This document shows positions 992 through 63,020 of a stretch of DNA of 64,000 nucleotides, piece by piece (positions within the stretch are counted from its first letter, which is position 1; each line of letters begins with the position of its first letter). The stretch is from a virus. Both the position numbers and the translations under genes were made by a program. The notes under the pieces are model-generated. The model did no database searches. It had not been told where the DNA came from and saw only the letters and a program-made list of their open reading frames with translations. The stretch covers positions 63,993-127,992 of the IMG/VR virus record IMGVR_UViG_3300049734_000491. One strand, 5' to 3'.

Positions 992-3900
992 ATGCCTGAA
1001 ATCGTCGGTACCGCGTATGTGCGGATCAAGGCCATCACCGACGGGGTGGCCAAGGACATCCAGTCCGGTCTGGACAAAGGTGCTGCCGATGTCGACGGCT
1101 CGGGGGCCGGCAGGAGAGTCGGCACGACCTTCACCCAGGGTGTGGTCGACGGGATCGACAAGGGTGGGGACGACGTCGATGCCAAACTCGGGTCGCTCGG
1201 CAAGGACGCCGATGACTCAAGTGGTTTCACCTTCGCCCAGAGATGGGCATCCAAGTTCTACCTCGGGCTCGAGAAGGCGACTGACAAGAAGAAGGAAGAC
1301 GGCTTCTTCAAGGGTCTGACCAAGAACCTCGACAAGCTCAACGACAAGCTGAAGGTTCCGAGAATTGCCCTCGCCGGCCTCTTCGGCGCACCGGCGATCG
1401 GTGGAGCGGTCCAGGCACTCGGGGGCTACATCGTCTCGATCGTCGGCCAACTCGGATACCTGAGCACCGCTGCGATCGGTGCAGCAGCCGGCATCACGGG
1501 AGCCTTCGGTGCCGCGGCGTTGGCCATCGGTCCGCTCATGCTGGCCTTCAAGGCTCAGACACCGGAGTTGGACGTCTTCCAGGCCAAGGCCTCGGCGATC
1601 GGTGACATCTGGAAGGACGTGGGTGTCGCCACCCAGAAGTACCTGCTCCCTGCCCTGACCGAGGCCATGGAGTCGTCGCTCGAGTTGGTGCCGACCTTCG
1701 AGGTCTTCGGAGAGAGCATCGGCGCCGTCTCGGGGATGCTCGCCAAGTTCGCGACGGAGATGTTGACCTCGAACCAGGTCAGCGAGCTCCTGCACAACAT
1801 CCTCGATGCCGCGATCCCGATCTTCGAGTCGTTGGGTCTGGCAGCGGTCGCCTTCGCCAGAGGGATGCTCGAGCTGTTCGATGCGGTGATCCCCTTGGCC
1901 TCACGGTTCGCCGGCACGATCCAGCACATGGCAGGGCAGTTCGCCCTGTTCATGACGGCGCAGAACCGCTCCGGTCAGCTGACCCAGACGCTCACCGAGT
2001 GGTACGACCGAGCCGAGTTGGTGGGCCAGGCGTTCATCGACTTCGGCAAGATCATCTGGAACGTGTTCAAGGTCGGTGCTGACGCAGCCACGCCGTTCTT
2101 CGAGACGTTTGCTGCGTTCGCCCAGAAGTGGGCCGACTTCTCGAAGACCGAGGTCGGGCAGGCCAAGATCAAGGGGATCTTCGAGGAGGCGGTCCCCGTC
2201 GCCCAGTCGATCAATGCCCTGCTACGGGACATCATCGGCTGGATCGTCCAACCGATCGGTAAGGACAGCTCGGGGATCGTCCGGTTCTTCGACACCCTGC
2301 GGACGGTCATGCTGCCGTCGATCCAGAAGATCGCCGAACAACTCACCGGAAACTTGTCTGGGGCCCTGGACACCTTCGTGCAGTCCATCCTGGGATTCCT
2401 GGAGGCAACTGCCTCTTCCGGATCACTTGAGGCATTCTTCGGGGTTCTCGGTCAGGTCCTCAACGTCCTCACCGCCATCATGCAGATCCCGGGGCTGGAC
2501 ACCTTCGTCGGCCTCATGCTGACCCTCGGCGGGGCGTTCAAGGCCGTCCACTTCGCGGCGAAGCCGTTCATCGCGGTCATGACCGGCTTCAAGGATCTCC
2601 TCTCGAGCAGCATGGGCAAGGCAGCGTTCAAGCCGGTGATCGAGGGCTTCGAGGCGTTCATCACCAACCCGAAGGGCGGTCTGACGGCGGCCAAGGACGG
2701 ACTCAGCACGTTCATCGGGTCCATCGGCGGAGTTGGCCTCGCCATGGGCGGGATCACCATCGCGGCCGCGGTCGGGGCTGCGGCCTTCATGGCGTGGCAG
2801 ACCAACGTCAAACGAGTTGAACAAGAGTCGAAGACCTTCGCCCAGACCCTCCTGAACGGCGGTGACGCCCTCGAGGAGCTCGACAAGAGCTACCGGAACA
2901 TCCTCAACACCCGGCAGTCCTTCGACTCCTCGATGGAGAAGAGTGGGATCAGCATCGCCCGTGTCACCAACTTGGTCAACGAGAACACCGGTGACGTGGA
3001 CAAGTTCCGGGCGGCATGGCACCACGCCGGAGGTGGCTTCAAGCAGTTCCGTGAGGAGGGCGGCAAGGTCCCCGCCTCGATGCAGGGCATCATCGCCCAC
3101 CTCGAGAAGCTGGGCGAAGCCGGCACCATGAGCCAGGGCGAGATCAATGAGGTCATCGACGGGATGACCGATCTCGACAAGCAGGCCCAGGCAGCCCAAG
3201 CTGGGATCGCAGCCCAAGCAGATCAACTGCTCAAGGCGGGAGAGGCTGCTGGCCTCAGTGCGGATCAGATGAAGTACTTCGCCGAGGCGGCAGATACTTC
3301 TGGGACGCTCGAGGAACAGAACGAGGCGCTACAACAGGGTATCGCTCTGTATCCGGTGATCGCCGAAGAAGCCGGTGTGTCGATGCAGACCATCACCCAG
3401 GTTTCCCAAGAGGTCAACCGGCAGTTCCAGTCCATCATCGACAAGCTCGACAAGTTGGCTGGTCGACAACTCAACGCTGATCAGGCCACCAGGGACTTCG
3501 CCCAATCCCAGATCGAGTTGAGCGAGAAGTTCGCCACGACCGGCGGCGTGCTGGCCGGCCAAACCAAAGAGGCCCTCGCCAACCGGGACGCCCTTGATGG
3601 CATGATCGCATCGGGCAAGCGGGCGGCTGAGGCTCAAGCATCGGTTGACTCGACCGGACAGAGTTCGATCGCTACCTTGAAGGGTTTGCAGCAACAGATC
3701 ATCCTGCTCGGACAAGCTGGTGGGTTGAGCACCGACGAGGTCAACGCCCTGCTCGATTCGTTCGGACTCTTGGACGACCAGCAGATCCAGGCCCAGGTGA
3801 GCGTTGCCACCGACCAGGCCATCACCGACACGGAGGCTCTCAAGAAAGAGATCCGTGAGATGGACGGGGTGACCGAGCCGGTGCGGCTCCGTCTCAACGC

Positions 3901-15898: not shown

Positions 15899-16423
15899 TC
15901 ACGACTGACGCTGCCGAGCCCTCCAACGTCGACCAGCTTCTCGCTGACACGTTCGACAACGACGAAACCCTTTCGGGTCGATGTACGTGTTCGCTGTGTC
16001 GTAGGGATGTCCGAACGGACAGCTGGTCATGTGTTCGTAGCGTCGACGTAGGTTCTCGGAGCGCGTAACCGGCTCGAGATGCTCAGGATTCACACACAGC
16101 GTGTTGAGGCAGAGGTGATCAAGGTCCAAGTCATCTGGAACCTTGGGTCCAAGCGCTTCGTAGATAAGTCGGTGTGCTCGATGAGTGCGACCCTGCCACT
16201 TGATCTGACCGTACCCATCACTACTGACTGTTCCTTTCCACTGCCAACAACCTGAGCTAGGGACAATTTCGTAGAGACGGTGTAAACGATCTTCAAGAGT
16301 CTCGTCACGAAATGCCCCACCAGCGTAAGGATCACCGTACCGCGACTGTCGATAGTGGTGAGGTCCGCAAAATCCATCTGCTCTGATCGGACGAGAGCAG
16401 TCTGGCAGCAAGCACTCAGACAT
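15899..16423 (-). CDS. HNH homing endonuclease
   Basis: CWQWKG..DGYG..AHRL..DHLCLNTLCVNPEHLEPV..EN. Confidence 0.88.
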   Translation of the reverse strand: MSECLLPDCSRPIRADGFCGPHHYRQSRYGDPYAGGAFRDETLEDRLHRLYEIVPSSGCWQWKGTVSSDGYGQIKWQGRTHRAHRLIYEALGPKVPDDLDLDHLCLNTLCVNPEHLEPVTRSENLRRRYEHMTSCPFGHPYDTANTYIDPKGFRRCRTCQREAGRRWRARQRQS

Positions 16424-16434
16424 CAACGTGAACT

Positions 16435-17736
16435 CTAATCGTACGGAAGCTCCAAGTGCTTCAGAATGTGGTACGCCAACCAACGTGCCACCGGTGAAGC
16501 GATCCCATTACCAATCATCTTGTATCGTGCACTATCTGGGATTTCGTTGCCACTTGAATCCCATCTAGTATGATCATCCGGCCAGCCCTGCAGTCGCTCA
16601 CACTCCCGAGGCGTGAGCCGTCGAACCCCGATCATGTCCCCAGCTACCTGTGGGACACCAGCTCCGTTGGCCACCCGTAGCGTCGGGGTGAACTTGTCCG
16701 ACACCTGCTCGTCGTGCAGGTTGTTCCCGTTGAACGAGACCACCGCCGGAGCGTGGCCGTCCGCCGGCAGCGTGGGCGAAGGATCCCCGGGCTTGGGATG
16801 GGATCGGTTGGTCTTGCTGGTGATCTGGGCGGTGTCGAACGGCATCGGCTCAGCCACGACCGTGTACATCCCCTTGTCGAGGCGGGTGGGGATCCCCTTG
16901 TAGTCGCGAGCTGTCAGCGTGTTGGCCATCTCTGGGATGAAGGTCATGCGCTCGGTGTCGGGTGACCAGCCACGTCGACCGGACCCCCCGCCCAGCGTGC
17001 CGGCCACGTCGGGGATCAAGTGGTTGGCTTGGGCGGAGTTGTCATCCGCGCCGCAACCTGCTCCAACGCCGTTTGCAGTGAGGGCGGAAGCGATCGTCCC
17101 CGACTTGCTGCCCTTCGCAGGATCCCGGCGCACCCTTTCGGTGACAGGAAGTATTTGGGGTCCACCGACTCTTCCAAGATCGAAGCAAGCGACGACGAAC
17201 ACTCGTCGGCGCCGTTGGGGGACTCCGCAGAAACGAGCATCCAGCACTCGCCACTGGATGTCCACCGCCCCGCATTCGGCCAAGAGGTCGAGGACTTGCG
17301 CGAAGTCGTCGCCCTGAGAGCTTGAGAGGGCGCCTCCGACGTTCTCCCAGACAGCATATGAGGGGATTCGTCCAAGGTCACGGTACTCCTTGATGATCCT
17401 GATCGCCTCGAGGAACAACCCCGAGCGAGTTCCTTCCTTCATGCCAGCTCGTTGACCCGAGATCGACAGATCTTGGCACGGGCTGCCGAAGCTGATGATG
17501 TCGCAGGGCGGCAGGTCCACTGCCTTCACGTCGGAGACATCGCCCCAGCGAGGTGTGTCCGGCCAGTGCCGAGCCAGGATCTCGTTGCACCACGAGTCCC
17601 ACTCGACCAGTCCCACGGTGTTGGCCCCGACTGCCTCGAAACCGAGATCCATGCCACCGACGCCGGCGAACAGGGAGAGGTGGTCGGCCCGAGGAGTGGC
17701 GATCCGTCGCTGTCGTCGGCGAGTTGGGGTAGCCAT
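16435..17736 (-). CDS. DNA (cytosine-5)-methyltransferase
   Basis: Motif I FAGVGG, motif IV GSPCQD, motif VI ENV, motif VIII QRRRRVF, LTPRECERLQG, motif X GN. Confidence 0.95.
   Translation of the reverse strand: MATPTRRRQRRIATPRADHLSLFAGVGGMDLGFEAVGANTVGLVEWDSWCNEILARHWPDTPRWGDVSDVKAVDLPPCDIISFGSPCQDLSISGQRAGMKEGTRSGLFLEAIRIIKEYRDLGRIPSYAVWENVGGALSSSQGDDFAQVLDLLAECGAVDIQWRVLDARFCGVPQRRRRVFVVACFDLGRVGGPQILPVTERVRRDPAKGSKSGTIASALTANGVGAGCGADDNSAQANHLIPDVAGTLGGGSGRRGWSPDTERMTFIPEMANTLTARDYKGIPTRLDKGMYTVVAEPMPFDTAQITSKTNRSHPKPGDPSPTLPADGHAPAVVSFNGNNLHDEQVSDKFTPTLRVANGAGVPQVAGDMIGVRRLTPRECERLQGWPDDHTRWDSSGNEIPDSARYKMIGNGIASPVARWLAYHILKHLELPYD
17016..17381 (-). CDS. Overprinted alternative-frame methyltransferase subunit (M.EcoHK31I beta-like)
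   Basis: SSLASILE..KYFLSPKGCAGILRRAASRGRSLPPSL, nested in the methyltransferase on the same strand in another frame. Confidence 0.65.
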   Translation of the reverse strand: MTLDESPHMLSGRTSEAPSQALRATTSRKSSTSWPNAGRWTSSGECWMLVSAESPNGADECSSSLASILEESVDPKYFLSPKGCAGILRRAASRGRSLPPSLQTALEQVAARMTTPPKPTT

Positions 17737-17763
17737 GGTCGGAGCTTACTCGGTCGACCAGGC

Positions 17764-18048
17764 TCAGCCGGGAATGGTCAACTCATTTCGGCGCTTCCGT
17801 CGTCGGCTCGTCTGGCGGTTCTTGGCCTCATCGGTGGTGGGCCCCTCCATCATCACGACGCGGACGAGCCACTGGCGGCGGCACCGAGTGTTCACGCACT
17901 GCACCACCGTCACGGCCGTGTCGGTGGAGGGTTCCTGACCCGTCTTGTGGGTGTCCCCATCACGGTCGGACTGGAAGGTGTTGCTGTTCACGTGGTCGAC
18001 CTGTCCACCACAGCGGAGGCAGGTCACATCGAGTTGGTATCGGCTCAC
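17764..18048 (-). CDS. Zinc-ribbon protein
   Basis: CLRC...CVNTRC; TAGTAT box 6 nt before the GTG start. Confidence 0.55.
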   Translation of the reverse strand: MSRYQLDVTCLRCGGQVDHVNSNTFQSDRDGDTHKTGQEPSTDTAVTVVQCVNTRCRRQWLVRVVMMEGPTTDEAKNRQTSRRRKRRNELTIPG

Positions 18049-18079
18049 AGGGCCATACTACAACTCATTGGTGAAACCC

Positions 18080-18358
18080 CGCCACCGCCGGCCGTGATTC
18101 CTGTGGCTGTCGGTGGGCTTTTGTCCGACGGTGGCGTGAGATGCCCCGCACCGCCAACCGCTCCTCGAAAGGCTGTCGAGGTAACTTCAGGTTGACGGTG
18201 CGGGAACCCGATGATCGCCACTGGTCTTGGCTGTCGATGCGACATCGGATCATTGGGTCGAGGGAGGGGCGGCTGTCGGATGTCCAATGGACCCTAGAAG
18301 GTGTCACCGCTGGCCGGAGTGCTTACAGCTGTCGCGAACTCTATGGGCCAGCGGTGAC
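18080..18358 (-). ncRNA. TIGR-like stem-loop guide array 1 (five units)
   Basis: Five hairpins whose loops read, on the - strand, NNN-N9-CGACAG-CYN-N9-CG with different spacers (one second spacer is 10 nt); directly downstream of the Tas-like gene. Confidence 0.85.
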
Positions 18359-18363
18359 GAGTA

Positions 18364-19218
18364 TTACAGACCCTCCTCTGACTTCCAGCGGGGCGGGAGG
18401 CCCGAAGCGACACGCCACAGGTCGATGCCGATCTGCTTGGCGGTGAACCGGAGGGCGGCGTTGTGCTTGTGGGCCTGCGTCCACTCCTCGCGGGCCTCGT
18501 ACTTCGCCTTGGCCTGATCGTAGGCATCACGGTAGGGAGACCGACGACGGGGCGCCCGTGTTACGGCTGTCGCGGCATTCGCGGCCGCGTCGTCGGTCAG
18601 GATGACGGGATCATCGGTACCACCACCGGTCGCGCACAGCCCAGCTCCCGTAACCACATCGGACTCGGTGGTGGTACCGGCCGAGCCGATCTGCTTGACG
18701 CAGGACTCGGCGAGCAGGTGGAGCAGCATCTTCGCCACGGGGTTGCCCAGAGCGAGGGTGTCTGCCTGGTCCATCCCCTTGCGGCGCTTGGCCGCGGGGT
18801 CGCCGTGGCCGCAGTAGGCCAGCAGCTGGCGGGGCGTGCGGTCGAACGGCTCGAGCGCCACGAGGTGGCGATCCTTGCCGCAGCGGAACGAGCACTCGTG
18901 CCCCTCGGGGGACTCGTCCATCCAGATCCACGGCTCGGCGTGGATGGGATCACCGATGGCACCGAGCAGGCGAGCCACGGTGTGCTCACCCAGTCCGACG
19001 GTGTCTCGGGCCCACGCGTAGAGCTCGGGGGCGGCGACACGGAAGGTCCGCTTCATCGCCAGCGCCAGCATCTTCTCGGTGGCCTGCAGGTTGGTCACGT
19101 GCTGGGTCATGGCCTCGGGGGCCGCTGGGATGTGGCGGAGTCTGTGCTCCGTGGCGATCCGCAGCTTCTGGGCATCGTGATAGCTCTCGGCGATCACCTT
19201 CAATTGGTCGTAGCTCAT
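18364..19218 (-). CDS. TasA-like Nop-domain RNA-guided DNA-binding protein 1 (IS110 C-terminal-like, no RuvC)
   Basis: Coiled coil, GLGEHTVARLLGAIG, QLLAYCG, GNPVAKMLL, SPYRDAYD..K, HKHNAALRFTAK; no DEDD domain; adjacent array. Confidence 0.8.
   Translation of the reverse strand: MSYDQLKVIAESYHDAQKLRIATEHRLRHIPAAPEAMTQHVTNLQATEKMLALAMKRTFRVAAPELYAWARDTVGLGEHTVARLLGAIGDPIHAEPWIWMDESPEGHECSFRCGKDRHLVALEPFDRTPRQLLAYCGHGDPAAKRRKGMDQADTLALGNPVAKMLLHLLAESCVKQIGSAGTTTESDVVTGAGLCATGGGTDDPVILTDDAAANAATAVTRAPRRRSPYRDAYDQAKAKYEAREEWTQAHKHNAALRFTAKQIGIDLWRVASGLPPRWKSEEGL
18540..18679 (-). ncRNA. Two guide hairpins embedded in frame in Tas-like gene 1
   Basis: CCG-ATGTGGTTA-CGGGAG-CTG-GGCTGTGCG-CG (18615-18679) and CCG-CGAATGCCG-CGACAG-CCG-TAACACGGG-CG (18540-18597), each closed by a long stem. 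Confidence 0.8.
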
Positions 19219-19252
19219 TGTCTTGTCCTTTGGTCGTTGTCGTTGTCGTTGG

Positions 19253-19747
19253 TCAGTTGTCGAGGTCAGCGAGACAGGTCACGCCGGCCGCGATGATGGT
19301 CTGTGCAGCCTCCTCGTGGGCGAGGCGGGTGTCACGGATGGAGTTCTCTTGGGTGAGCAGCCAGCCCGCACGGGCGAGATGGTCGTCGGCGGTTGCCTTC
19401 AACCATTCAACCCATCGTCCATCGGGCAGGATGAACGACTGCTCCATGAGCAGCCGACGGGCGGTAGTGGGGTCGGCTCCGGCCGCGATGTCGGTCCGGA
19501 CTCGGATCTCGGTCCGACGAACCTCGGCCCGCTGAATGCGGGACACCTCGTAGCGCACGAGCTGGAGCAGCCAGCGCCGTCGCTCGGACTCGGTGAGCGC
19601 AGCGATGGCTGCCTCGGCGATGTCCTGCTGATCTTCGAGACCCGAAGCGATCGCAGCCTTGATGTGGGCGTAGAGCGACGTGGGTGTCGTGACAGCCGAC
19701 GGGAGGGTAGTGGTTGTCGGTGTTGTTGGTGGTGCTTGGAACGTCAT
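19253..19747 (-). CDS. Tas-associated partner protein 1 (function unknown)
   Basis: DGRWVEWLKATADDHLARAGW...IAAGVTCLADL; paralog of 60863-61561. Confidence 0.7.
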   Translation of the reverse strand: MTFQAPPTTPTTTTLPSAVTTPTSLYAHIKAAIASGLEDQQDIAEAAIAALTESERRRWLLQLVRYEVSRIQRAEVRRTEIRVRTDIAAGADPTTARRLLMEQSFILPDGRWVEWLKATADDHLARAGWLLTQENSIRDTRLAHEEAAQTIIAAGVTCLADLDN

Positions 19748-19818
19748 GGCGGTGACTATAACACACGGTCCTTCGCTGCTGACAAATTACCTGTGGTATC
19801 CACAGGAAGGAGCTCGCT

Positions 19819-19944
19819 GTGAGTCCCCGAGGAAGAGATCCTGATGACCCAGACGAGTTCCTGCTGTTCGTGCTGGTCGGCCTCGCTTGCCTGGTCCTGC
19901 TGTTCTACTGGTTCCTGTGGTGGTACCGAACAGGCGGGTCGTAA
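19819..19944 (+). CDS. Small membrane protein
   Basis: AAGGAG RBS; MSPRGRDPDDPDEFLLFVLVGLACLVLLFYWFLWWYRTGGS (41 aa, one TM helix). Confidence 0.5.
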   Translation: MSPRGRDPDDPDEFLLFVLVGLACLVLLFYWFLWWYRTGGS

Positions 19945-19949
19945 CAGGA

Positions 19950-19978
19950 TTGACACGAACGGAACCCATCTGTAGTAC
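19950..19978 (+). promoter_or_regulatory. SigA-like promoter for the transglycosylase gene
   Basis: TTGACA-17 nt-TAGTAC. Confidence 0.65.
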
Positions 19979-20064
19979 CCTGCCACAAACGAACGGAGCG
20001 ACCCCCCCTGCCAAGAGAAGGTCGCTCCGTTGTCCTAATCATCCACTGAAAGGACCCGCCGATT

Positions 20065-20517
20065 ATGGCACGCCCCAAGGCGCTCCGGCGAAAGATTCTG
20101 CTCGCAATCGGAGCCCTGCTCAGCTTCGGTACCCTCGCAGCCTGCTCGCCACACCAGATCGCTGTGTTCAACAGCCTCTCTCCCGAAGGACAGACTGCAG
20201 TGCTCCAGGAGCTGCAGCGTCAACAGGGCGGAGGAGGAAGTGGTGGTGACTGCTACAGCGCCATCGAACAGGTCTGGCCCGGACATCTCCAGGCCAAGGC
20301 TCGGACCATCGTGTCCCGCGAGTCCGGCAACAACCCCAGTGCCCAGAACCGTTCATCATCCGCGGCGGGTTGTTGGCAAATCCTGACTGGCTCGTGGATC
20401 GACCCCGGCGGCTGCCCGAGGTCAACTCGTTACGACGCCGTGTGCAACACCCGTGCAGCGCTGGCGCTCTACAACTCGGCCGGCGGTTGGTCGCCGTGGA
20501 GGCTGACCGCCTACTGA
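20065..20517 (+). CDS. Secreted lipoprotein, lytic transglycosylase (SLT/Rpf-like)
   Basis: Signal peptide with LAAC lipobox; IVSRESG..P.AQN..SSAAGCWQI; GWSPW. Confidence 0.8.
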   Translation: MARPKALRRKILLAIGALLSFGTLAACSPHQIAVFNSLSPEGQTAVLQELQRQQGGGGSGGDCYSAIEQVWPGHLQAKARTIVSRESGNNPSAQNRSSSAAGCWQILTGSWIDPGGCPRSTRYDAVCNTRAALALYNSAGGWSPWRLTAY

Positions 20518-59835: not shown

Positions 59836-60011
59836 GTCCCCAGCGGCGGTCATCAAGGGGGTATCGCATCTTCTAAGGCCGCTGGGGACCGAGGATGCCA
59901 TCGACGGCGACTCTGGTTTGGGCATCGCTACTTCTACGACCGTCGATGGCGAAGGTGTCCCCGACGGCGGGGTATCGGTGGGTATCGCATGTGCTCCGAC
60001 CGTCGGGGACA
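59836..60011 (-). ncRNA. TIGR-like stem-loop guide array 2 (three units; a degenerate fourth at 59730-59793)
   Basis: Hairpins with loops NNN-N9-CGATRC-CCM-N9-CG; spacer pairs GAGCACATG/CCGATACCC, TAGAAGTAG/AACCAGAGT, TAGAAGATG/CTTGATGAC. Confidence 0.85.
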
Positions 60012-60017
60012 GACCAG

Positions 60018-60866
60018 TCACGCAAGCGTCGTCAGGTAGAGGTTATAGAGCCGACGAAGGAACTCCTTCGAGGTCCGCCGGATGGCGGCGTTGTCAGCGT
60101 GTCCCTTCGTCCAGCCGCGCTCTGAGTACATGAGCTTGGAGAGGTCGAGGTAGCAGCGGAGACAGAGGTCGTCCCGGACAGCGTCGCTACTGTGGGTGTC
60201 GGTCATACCATGACCGCCCGGGACGACGAAGGTGCCATCGACGGCGGGGCATCGGTGGGTGTCGTATGTGCTCTGGCCGTCAGGGAGATCGAGGACGCAG
60301 CCCGGAGTGTGCTCACCGGCCTTCCTGATCTGTGTCGTGTTCAAGTAGAGCAATGACTTGATGCGGACGTTGCCGGACGCCATCGCCTCGGACTGTGTCA
60401 TGCCCTTGGTGCGGCGGCGGGTCGGGTCGCCCAGAGCGCAGTAGGACCAGAGCTGGGAAACGGATCGGATCTGCGGCTCACCCTGCACCAACACCCGTTC
60501 GTCCGTGCTCCCCGCCTCGGATCCGGGAATCCACCACTTCGGGATGGCGACCACCGGATGTCCGATCGCTCCGAGGATCCGTGCGACGGTGTGCTCGCCG
60601 ACACCGCGCTGTGCCGCGACCCACTCCCGCACCGGTTCGGGAACGACATCACGGTAGGTCCTCTTCAGGGCCTTGCTGGCGGCCTTCTCGATCTCAGTCA
60701 ACAGATGGATCTGATCGTCGAAGAGACCAGCAGGAGCGTGTCTCAAACGATTACCGGTAGCGATCCTCATCAGCTGCATATCAGTGAACTGATCGGCGGC
60801 GAGACGCAGGAGCCGGTACTGATCATCAAGGGCGTCGATGGCATCGACATCCTTGAGGTCGATCAC
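60018..60866 (-). CDS. TasA-like Nop-domain protein 2
   Basis: GVGEHTVARILGAIG, SQLWSYCALGDP, GNVRIKSLL, GHADNAAIRRTSKEFL; paralog of 18364-19218. Confidence 0.8.
   Translation of the reverse strand: MIDLKDVDAIDALDDQYRLLRLAADQFTDMQLMRIATGNRLRHAPAGLFDDQIHLLTEIEKAASKALKRTYRDVVPEPVREWVAAQRGVGEHTVARILGAIGHPVVAIPKWWIPGSEAGSTDERVLVQGEPQIRSVSQLWSYCALGDPTRRRTKGMTQSEAMASGNVRIKSLLYLNTTQIRKAGEHTPGCVLDLPDGQSTYDTHRCPAVDGTFVVPGGHGMTDTHSSDAVRDDLCLRCYLDLSKLMYSERGWTKGHADNAAIRRTSKEFLRRLYNLYLTTLA
60168..60281 (-). ncRNA. Two guide hairpins embedded in frame in Tas-like gene 2
   Basis: CCA-GAGCACATA-CGACAC-CCA-CCGATGCCC-CG and TCA-TGGTATGAC-CGACAC-CCA-CAGTAGCGA-CG, each within a stem. Confidence 0.8.
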
Positions 60867-61561
60867 GCCAGCTCCTTCGGCGGGACAACCGTCAGGAGTG
60901 ATGCATCGGTCGACGGTGGCTCGGGACGCTTGGCCTCGGGCAATGCAGCGAGGTTGGGCACGCCGGCCTCAATGAGAGCATCGATCGCGTTCTGGTGCCG
61001 CTGGCAGTCGGTCTGGAGCGGTTCAATGTACCGCCGGTTGATCCAAGCGATCCGACCAGCGTGCTGTTCGATGGTCGCCTCAAGCCAGTCGACGTAGTCG
61101 GTGCCGTCGAAGAACTTGTACCCACCGAGTTGGTCCTTGGCGAGACGCGACCACGTCCGATGAACCGGTTCGGTCTCAGCCACCTCGACCTCCTCGGTGG
61201 GGATGTGTTCCGATTCACCGTTCTCTGCGGACTCACCCTCCTCAGTGGCAGGTGGGGGAGTGGTAACGGGGACGGTGGGGGTGTACGGATCGCCCACAGC
61301 ATTCTCGGCATCACGGGTCAGAGCCCGCTGCCACGTCTTGGCCTCCTTGATGAGCGAGGCGAGGACATACTTCTCGTACTCCGCTGTGGTCATCGCCTTG
61401 ATCGCCCGCTCAGCCAGCTTCTCCGGATCGGTGGTGTGGGGCTCGTCCCGATGTGGAACCGCCGAGGCGAAGATCTCAACCAGTGGTCGGATCTTCGGAG
61501 TGGATGACGACGAGGTCGTCGAAGTGGGCGTGGTCATCATCGTCACGTCGACGAGTTCCAT
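60863..61561 (-). CDS. Tas-associated partner protein 2
   Basis: DGTDYVDWLEATIEQHAGRIAW...IEAGVPNLAAL; GTGA-coupled to Tas-like gene 2. Confidence 0.7.
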   Translation of the reverse strand: MELVDVTMMTTPTSTTSSSSTPKIRPLVEIFASAVPHRDEPHTTDPEKLAERAIKAMTTAEYEKYVLASLIKEAKTWQRALTRDAENAVGDPYTPTVPVTTPPPATEEGESAENGESEHIPTEEVEVAETEPVHRTWSRLAKDQLGGYKFFDGTDYVDWLEATIEQHAGRIAWINRRYIEPLQTDCQRHQNAIDALIEAGVPNLAALPEAKRPEPPSTDASLLTVVPPKELA

Positions 61562-61686
61562 GAGATCTCCCTGTTGGTCTTGGTCTTGGTCTTGGTCTTG
61601 ATCATCGGCAGTTGGCCACATGAAGCAGGGAGACCAGTAGGTCATCTCTCACACCGACTGCCGCCTCGGGTTCAAGTAGGCGTTGG

Positions 61687-62842: not shown

Positions 62843-63020
62843 GGTGGGCCCTGTCGTCAGTGTAAATGATGGTTCGGAACACGCTGGGCCGCTTTCCTTT
62901 CGGCTGTCGAGAAGCCATTGGACCCAGCGTGTTCCTCACCACATACAGGCCGAGGGAGGGCGGGGATCCTTCGGGGCGGGGGAGATTTCCTGAGAGTCCG
63001 CTACCCATCGGAGTGGTGGA

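Follow-up and report, generated by a model that had tools for sequence, protein, structure and literature searches.

In an uncultured soil phage, the gene tas1 specifies a nuclease-free TIGR-associated protein with a 51-residue disordered loop whose DNA is coded twice: at the protein level it is a linker under no constraint, and as RNA it forms two stem-loop units. We consider it probable that the insert consists of in-frame stem-loop guide units of the TasA protein that carries them, one of which (X2) is regular and the other (X1) drifted. The anatomy of the insert, the homology of the protein, the hypervariability of the insert among relatives and the recurrence of this layout in a paralogue and at other loci were established directly. 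The window analysed here is a stretch of 64,000 nucleotides, the second half of the 127,992-bp single-contig genome of the phage; soil-metagenome runs hold near-identical copies of that genome, and the G+C content of the window DNA is 61-66%. The features discussed below are the following:

18364-19218, minus strand: tas1, a 284-residue nuclease-free Tas protein of the TasA type, with a coiled coil and a Nop C-terminal domain
18541-18693, minus strand: coding segment of the tas1 insert, a hypervariable disordered insert (residues 176-226) that forms 'insertion 1' of the Nop domain
18615-18679, minus strand: X1, a hairpin inside tas1, a degenerate guide-like unit
18539-18598, minus strand: X2, a hairpin inside tas1, a guide unit as judged by its grammar
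18084-18358, minus strand: stem-loop TIGR array downstream of tas1, five units (U1-U5) with the loop repeat CGACAGC[CT]N
60018-60866, minus strand: tas2, a second TasA paralogue of 282 residues with two intragenic units
60240-60281 and 60168-60227, minus strand: the intragenic units of tas2, canonical under covariance model R1
59836-60011, minus strand: array downstream of tas2, three units with the loop repeat CGAT[AG]CCC[AC]
62876-62935, minus strand: an orphan guide unit, a hairpin with a stem of at least 11 bp that is matched by R1

The guide array of tas1 starts within the gene and ends 280 nt beyond its stop codon. U1 begins 5 nt past the stop, and U1-U5 share an invariant CGACAGC at the same place as the loop repeats of X1 and X2. 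Megablast of positions 17000-20500 against GenBank phages gave no match, and Rfam returned nothing except a chance match to sX6 (13.6 bits, where the gathering score is 40). A scan of 17700-20100 for promoters of the sigma-70 type alone found none; the same region contains one terminator-like site (19806-19790, minus strand), upstream of the partner gene of tas1.

The identity of the protein is supported by both structure and sequence profiles. The AlphaFold2 model of tas1, built on 30 homologues (pLDDT 87.3, pTM 0.80), opens with a coiled-coil helix at residue 3, and its best PDB match in Foldseek is TIGR-TasR 9mty (chain 9mty_B, E 4e-7, TM 0.57), followed by eight TasH chains and then by IS110 recombinases and Nop5. 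A profile of tas1 homologues matches the TaTasR sequence (9mty_A) directly, with an E value of 1.2e-19. The NCBIfam model NF052498 TIGR_Tas_endo ('TIGR-Tas system RNA-guided endonuclease') aligns to tas1 from profile position 1 (E 2.2e-26), scoring 93.1 bits against a curated cut-off of 100, and a Pfam search gave no match at E <= 1 and no nuclease domain. As the protein opens with a coiled coil and lacks any nuclease domain, we assign it to the TasA type, and it is accompanied by a stem-loop array of its own. The first-pass annotation had placed its guide units within a Tas-like reading frame; the coordinates given there are correct, and the kind of protein is borne out by the Foldseek, profile and NCBIfam results.

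In PHROGs, tas1 falls into phrog_4285 (2.6e-25), which bears the label 'transposase', and some GenBank records use the same name for relatives of tas1. An assignment to the IS110 transposases was considered and rejected: nothing precedes the coiled coil in tas1, a RuvC-like DEDD domain is missing, and neither PF01548 nor PF02371 matches. A tblastn search against phages found just Mycobacterium phages, at ~30% identity over residues 3-178, and did not inform on the insert.

The insert (...GSAGTTTESDVVTG...TRAPRRR, residues ~176-226) is encoded by the two minus-strand hairpins. X1 (18679-18615) begins directly after the conserved Gly-Ser codons of tas1 and has a perfect stem of 14 bp followed by a bulged A and by three additional pairs, enclosing an inner loop of 30 nt (18661-18632); the 1-nt bulge is needed for X1 to attain this loop geometry. 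X2 (18598-18539) follows after a linker of 16 nt and has a perfect stem of 11 bp, one C.C mismatch and 3 further pairs around an inner loop of, again, 30 nt (18583-18554). Its 3' arm consists of the conserved Pro-Arg-Arg-Arg-Ser codons and its 5' arm of the complementary Thr-Asp-Asp codons. Both inner loops have the layout 2 + 9 + 9-nt repeat + 9 + 1 that is seen in U1, U2 and U4. For X2 the loop reads CG, nine bases, CGACAGCCG, nine bases and C, and the CGACAGCCG repeat is identical in U2 and the orphan unit. The corresponding repeat of X1 is CGGGAGCTG, which is the same as the U1 repeat at 7 of 9 positions.

In the protein model, residues ~176-227 have no secondary structure and a pLDDT of 44-60, while the conserved C-terminal helices continue in frame after the insert with a pLDDT above 90. 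This agrees with the first-pass annotation, which had held that the low-complexity segment is hairpin guide-like DNA read in frame, that the frame is preserved across it, and that a structure prediction should show a disordered loop. The two hairpins occupy the middle of the gene; the final two helices of the RNA-binding domain are encoded downstream of them. In the HMM alignment the insert falls between K246 and S250 of TaTasR and so corresponds to insertion 1, which Xu et al. (bioRxiv 10.64898/2026.09.09.750476, 11 Sept 2026; cited throughout from the available part of the preprint) define in their Methods as Q247-T249. The wedge, G210-K230 of TaTasR in the same account, is equivalent to residues ~137-163 of tas1.

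Hairpins of this kind are rare in the phage DNA outside the guide loci. The window contains 17 perfect hairpins with a stem of at least 9 bp and a loop of 24-48 nt; the seven with stems of at least 11 bp all belong to the two tas loci or to the orphan unit, and the longest perfect stem is that of X1. Over the full 128-kb genome there are 8 hairpins with stems of at least 11 bp, against a mean of 1.35 (range 0-3) in 20 first-order Markov simulations. The predicted RNA folds of X1 (-36.8 kcal/mol, z = -3.99) and X2 (-35.5 kcal/mol, z = -3.87) are likewise more stable than expected, and none of 200 shuffles was as low for either hairpin.

Two covariance models were used to compare the units with guides elsewhere. 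R1 was built from 70 distinct hairpins with 30-nt loops, which came from 38 viral loci with genes for homologues, and contains no window sequence; the family loop consensus is C-A-N9-CGAnACCCA-N9-C, and 66-69 of the 70 units agree at its fixed positions. R2 was built from four units of the window (U1, U2, U4 and the orphan unit) as 40-mers with 5-bp stems, fuller unit alignments being gapped in the 3' stems; X1, X2, U3 and U5 were held out. When R1 was run over the whole window with filters off, the best nine matches were all on the minus strand, each within one of the tas loci or on the orphan unit, and they include X2 and both intragenic units of tas2. X2 ranks eighth with 19.2 bits (E = 0.0014 within tas1), compared with 9.8 bits for the antisense strand, so that the match is sense-specific. 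Under R2 the best window matches outside the training set are U3 (22.6 bits), U5 (18.5 bits) and X2 (17.5 bits, rank 7). The scores of X2 under R1 and R2 are modest, at window-wide E values of 0.11 to 0.17 (0.11 under R1). Judged by its grammar, X2 is nonetheless a convincing and regular dual-spacer guide unit.

X1 behaves differently. R1 gives it 11.3 bits in the sense and 11.1 bits in the antisense direction, and we therefore conclude that the hairpin alone is recognised; the R2 search of the window did not find it. X1 is a strongly paired hairpin with X2-like geometry in which the box and loop motifs have drifted. The first-pass annotation had described two complete guide units; this holds for X2 on the strength of its grammar and both models, but for X1 it is the hairpin geometry that stands, whereas the loop motif is degenerate. 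The scores of the downstream array help to place this drift. Under R1, U1 reaches 26.9 bits and U5 17.6 bits, but U2 (11.1 bits) and U4 (10.3 bits) are weak and no better than X1, and because of this we regard the tas1 locus as a drifted variant of the family. Its loops depart from the family consensus at positions 2, 17 and 20, and since this applies to all of its units, the locus could be decaying.

The second paralogue, tas2, is 35% identical to tas1 and has an insert at the same site, with two canonical intragenic units. R1 scores them at 29.7 bits (60240-60281) and 23.5 bits (60168-60227, matched over 60174-60221), with within-gene E values of 1.2e-5 and 2e-4, and both matches are sense-specific. 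The unit at 60240-60281 is nearly a copy of the first unit downstream of tas2, with a 1-base difference in each spacer; the three units of that downstream array score 33, 25.8 and 28.7 bits.

Homologues of tas1 are numerous: 130 were found at 90% clustering, and 797 representatives have E <= 0.001 in a 50% library, most of which match in two stretches separated at query residue 175-180. The insert comprises 0 to 174 residues in the 245 homologues that were aligned; measured between K175 and S227, the stretch ranges from 1 to 174 residues, with peaks at 3 (47 homologues), 9 (33), 14 (24) and 20-23 residues (20), and longer ones at 37-45, 59-61 (12) and 81-86 residues (13). The steps of ~20 residues correspond to roughly one 60-nt unit, so that the site can hold from 0 to ~8 units. 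The segment is thus the hypervariable insertion that the first-pass annotation had expected. A scan of genome contigs yielded four loci, one in Nocardioides, one in a Rhodanobacteraceae MAG and two in an Actinomycetes MAG.

At loci that encode homologues, guide units are concentrated on the strand of the tas gene. A strict test of the grammar found 171 units on that strand versus 9 on the other (203,619 bases, 38 viral loci), and a looser detector found 726 versus 103 (431,389 bases, 118 loci). After removal of 23 duplicates from the 118 related loci, 95 remained. The commonest placements of units among these are upstream, downstream, or in the stretch of open frame that immediately precedes the conserved core. 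Units lie within insertion 1 at eight loci (L006, L018, L020, L057, L061, L069, L085 and L086), of which L057, with an insert of 3 residues, is probably a boundary mislabel, and within the wedge at three (L032, L036 and L038).

The way in which X2 is anchored on conserved codons also recurs. The insert DNA of L002, L044 and L045 folds with its arms on the conserved flanking codons, of the CVGS type on the 5' side and R-x-R-S on the 3' side. Among 97 homologues with inserts of at least 18 residues, 41 have an acidic pair 9-14 residues before the terminal RxR, with distances peaking at 11-14 residues; in 200 shuffles the mean was 8.5 and the maximum 16. As this spacing is kept, X2 looks like the conserved last unit of insertion 1 in the clade, a view that is drawn from the protein sequences.

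Parts of the locus, among them X1 and most of X2, are present in RNA libraries; from 17800-19900, only the stretches with such cover were taken as evidence. Two soil RNA libraries contain contigs of 151 nt, the read length, at a depth of 2 and with 100% identity to the locus: 18307-18457 and 18554-18704 in one library, the latter covering the whole of X1 and most of X2, and 18216-18366 in the other. Strand, ends and processing cannot be read from these contigs, and they may reflect carry-over of DNA. In the DNA runs X9 and X11 there are no differences within X1 or X2.

Xu et al. tie a CUU motif, in the linkers or at the base of the stem, to processing. CTT is absent from the flanks of X1 and X2 and from the 16-nt linker between them. 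In the linkers of related loci CCTTC or CCCTTC is commonest (15 of 115) and CTT as such is present in 32 of these 115; linkers of the CCTTC type also occur in the tas2 locus and after U1.

Targets were sought in the phage's own 128-kb genome as sites where spacers A and B match opposite strands, at most 40 nt apart and with at most 1 mismatch each. For the spacer pairs of X1 and X2 this search found none. It found three opposite-strand pairs for other units (U1, Y1 and V3), which is about the level of chance, with ~0.1 estimated for U1 alone. By simple arithmetic, 18 specified bases are expected to give ~17 chance matches in public collections of 596 Gb.

If the insert indeed consists of guide units, X1 and X2 would be released from the tas1 message or transcribed within it; Xu et al. 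allow for both sources of intragenic tigRNAs, processing of the tas transcript and promoters inside tas. X2 at least would then be loaded by a TasA dimer as a tigRNA, and the resulting RNP may bind DNA complementary to the two 9-nt spacers of X2 and repress its transcription, as other TasA proteins do, TasA being an RNA-guided transcription repressor in Xu et al. A plausible consequence is that guide release would be coupled to decay or translation of the tas1 mRNA. The negative autoregulation that the first-pass annotation had proposed, in which guide maturation cuts the message of its own effector, is likewise plausible, and if such feedback exists, it would give the phage a compact way to couple effector dose to guide supply.

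The most serious alternative is that the hairpins, and X1 above all, are relics: array units that were absorbed into the reading frame, are tolerated as a linker and are not used as guides. We regard this as unlikely for the insert, even though several observations are in its favour, namely that the X1 repeat is off consensus and recognised by neither R1 nor R2, that U2 and U4 also score low under the family model, that no CUU linker accompanies X1 and X2, and that their spacers have no target in the phage's own genome. Against it, uninterrupted stems of 14 and 11 bp should decay quickly if there were no selection on the nucleotide sequence, given that the stretch of protein they encode is itself unconstrained; the signature of the terminal unit is kept in 41 of 97 diverged homologues, and tas2 retains two canonical units at the same site. 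A different possibility, to which we give little credence, is that X1 and X2 are cis-regulatory sites at which binding of TasA blocks translation or triggers decay, with X1 serving as a decoy. The RNA-binding protein L7Ae exerts comparable feedback on its own message. Such a role would suit the mid-gene position of the units, ahead of the coding sequence for the two final helices of the RNA-binding domain, as well as the retention of stem and geometry by X1 despite the loss of its guide motifs, and Xu et al. raise the possibility that guide maturation is tied to translation of Tas. However, the spacers of X2 are fully variable and guide-like, and a site that holds from 0 to ~8 units per homologue fits the dynamics of an array better than a fixed operator.

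It could also be argued that the insert is selected as protein only, as an RNA-contacting insertion 1, and that the palindromes are a by-product or a chance outcome of GC-rich sequence. The DNA is indeed GC-rich (62-64% G+C), and Xu et al. report that the tigRNA loop is touched on its inside by insertion 1. We nonetheless disfavour this explanation as highly improbable: amino acids and length are hypervariable, yet the nucleotide grammar and the complementarity of the arms recur; ~1.35 such hairpins are expected per 128 kb, whereas the two found here are 16 nt apart; and the score of X2 is strand-specific. We thus prefer the explanation by in-frame guide units, X2 regular and X1 drifted. Beyond it, we can speculate that X2 is an ancient, vertically kept dual-coding element, built on the RRRS and acidic codons, and that TasA binds X2 as guide and X1 as decoy on the nascent mRNA and so sets its own level by guide release or by blocking the ribosome. 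This extended scenario is rather unlikely as a whole. If it were true, the loop with which TasA touches its guide would itself be encoded by a guide, and the effector mRNA would be guide precursor and feedback sensor at once.

With respect to known systems, tas1 is related to the IS110 bridge-RNA recombinases IS621 and ISCro4 through its RNA-binding domain (Foldseek E 7e-3 to 5e-2); unlike these, it has no RuvC-like DEDD domain, and its locus contains tandem hairpin units instead of a bridge RNA. The likeness to TaTasR (PDB 9mty) is closer, extending to the fold of the Nop domain, to homology at the profile level and to the arrangement CCA / N9 / (U/C)G around each spacer. TaTasR differs in having a RuvC nuclease domain, dual-repeat guides of 36 nt and an insertion 1 of three residues. 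Stem-loop TIGR arrays that accompany TasA were described by Faure et al. 2025 (PMC12045711), in the available portion of that paper on a contig from the Peromyscus gut, as tandem hairpins, each giving one guide and containing two spacers of 8-12 nt with box C/D-like flanks. The tas1 array resembles that one in its tandem dual-spacer hairpins and in a TasA without nuclease; the array of Faure et al. is intergenic, whereas that of tas1 continues into coding sequence.

Intragenic guide units were known before, and tas1 is a further example. Xu et al. describe intragenic in-frame stem-loop tigRNAs in disordered loops of Tas proteins, among them BlTasA of Bifidobacterium longum, for which two tigRNA-coding regions in the wedge loop were seen by small-RNA sequencing, along with a survey by TIGRFinder; since they describe both the intragenic units and the idea of a link between guide maturation and Tas translation, neither is new here. 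Like BlTasA, tas1 combines a nuclease-free TasA and a stem-loop array with two units that are set in frame into a disordered Nop-domain loop. Unlike in BlTasA, where the units are in the wedge loop, those of tas1 are in insertion 1, equivalent to TaTasR 247-249, and compared with the systems in the available part of Xu et al., tas1 has one degenerate unit, no CUU flanks and a box C relaxed to C[CT]N. The details that go beyond that part of the published account are the site in insertion 1, a last unit that appears anchored on conserved Arg codons across the clade, and a drifted X1 that keeps a perfect stem. With tas1 and tas2, the phage would add two paralogous cases to the natural instances of guide RNAs encoded within their own effector gene.

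Within tas1, the gene for the nuclease-free TasA-type protein Tas1, two sets of contigs from DNA runs X9 and X11 leave the window sequence: some follow it to position 18595 and then diverge into unlike sequence, while others follow it to 18860 before diverging. The breakpoint at 18595 falls exactly at the 5' arm of X2, the guide-like hairpin inside the gene, and co-occurring variants seem, from these contig sequences, to differ across the stretch that holds X1, the degenerate intragenic hairpin, and the preceding helix.

At the second locus, which encodes the paralogue Tas2, the first intragenic unit (60240-60281, minus strand) is close to a copy of the first downstream unit (59960-60007, minus strand); the two differ by one base in spacer A and one in spacer B, and this near-identity suggests that a unit was duplicated across the tas2 stop codon. 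Upstream of tas2, its partner gene (60863-61645) contains weak matches to R1, the covariance model built from stem-loop units of other viral loci, and lone units occur away from both arrays. These features, and a separate set of tandem repeats, are as follows.

Isolated hairpins, weak model matches and other repeats
61503-61541, minus strand: weak R1 match in the partner gene (16.5 bits, E 0.37)
61358-61397, minus strand: weak R1 match in the partner gene (12 bits, E 2.8)
62876-62935, minus strand: orphan guide-like unit, 13-bp stem (R1 28.1 bits, E 0.0019 in a whole-window search)
Genome 3662-3711, outside the window, plus strand: lone hairpin, 10-bp stem and 30-nt loop
28217-28333: three tandem 39-nt repeats, common sequence CCATCCCACACCTTC

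The orphan unit carries a repeat of the locus-1 type (CGACAGCCG), although 44 kb separate it from locus 1. It is enclosed by overlapping unannotated ORFs, and the locus-2 operon lies about 2 kb downstream of it. The lone hairpin outside the window is in the genome's other half, and its loop reads CG, nine nucleotides, CGACGGCCG, nine nucleotides and C; judged by its sequence, this plus-strand hairpin is a locus-1-like unit.

The spacer pair of U1, a unit downstream of tas1, matches 16409-16437, near the start of an HNH gene (15899-16483), with spacer B on the plus strand, spacer A on the minus strand, 11 nt between them and one mismatch in each match; by our own estimate, for U1 alone, about 0.1 such opposite-strand pairs would be expected by chance. 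In the array downstream of tas2, the spacers A of V2 and V3 (within 59848-59938, minus strand) agree at 7/9 bases and both start with TAGAAG, and spacer A of U1 (18316-18345, minus strand) begins TAGAG. As related guides, V2, V3 and U1 may be directed to related sites.

Beyond this genome, a protein with ~30% identity to Tas1 residues 3-178 is encoded in 79 Mycobacterium phage records in GenBank, for example those of Bethlehem, Pari and Rufus. These relatives are labelled 'transposase', 'hypothetical' or 'HTH', and may be unrecognised Tas-like proteins.
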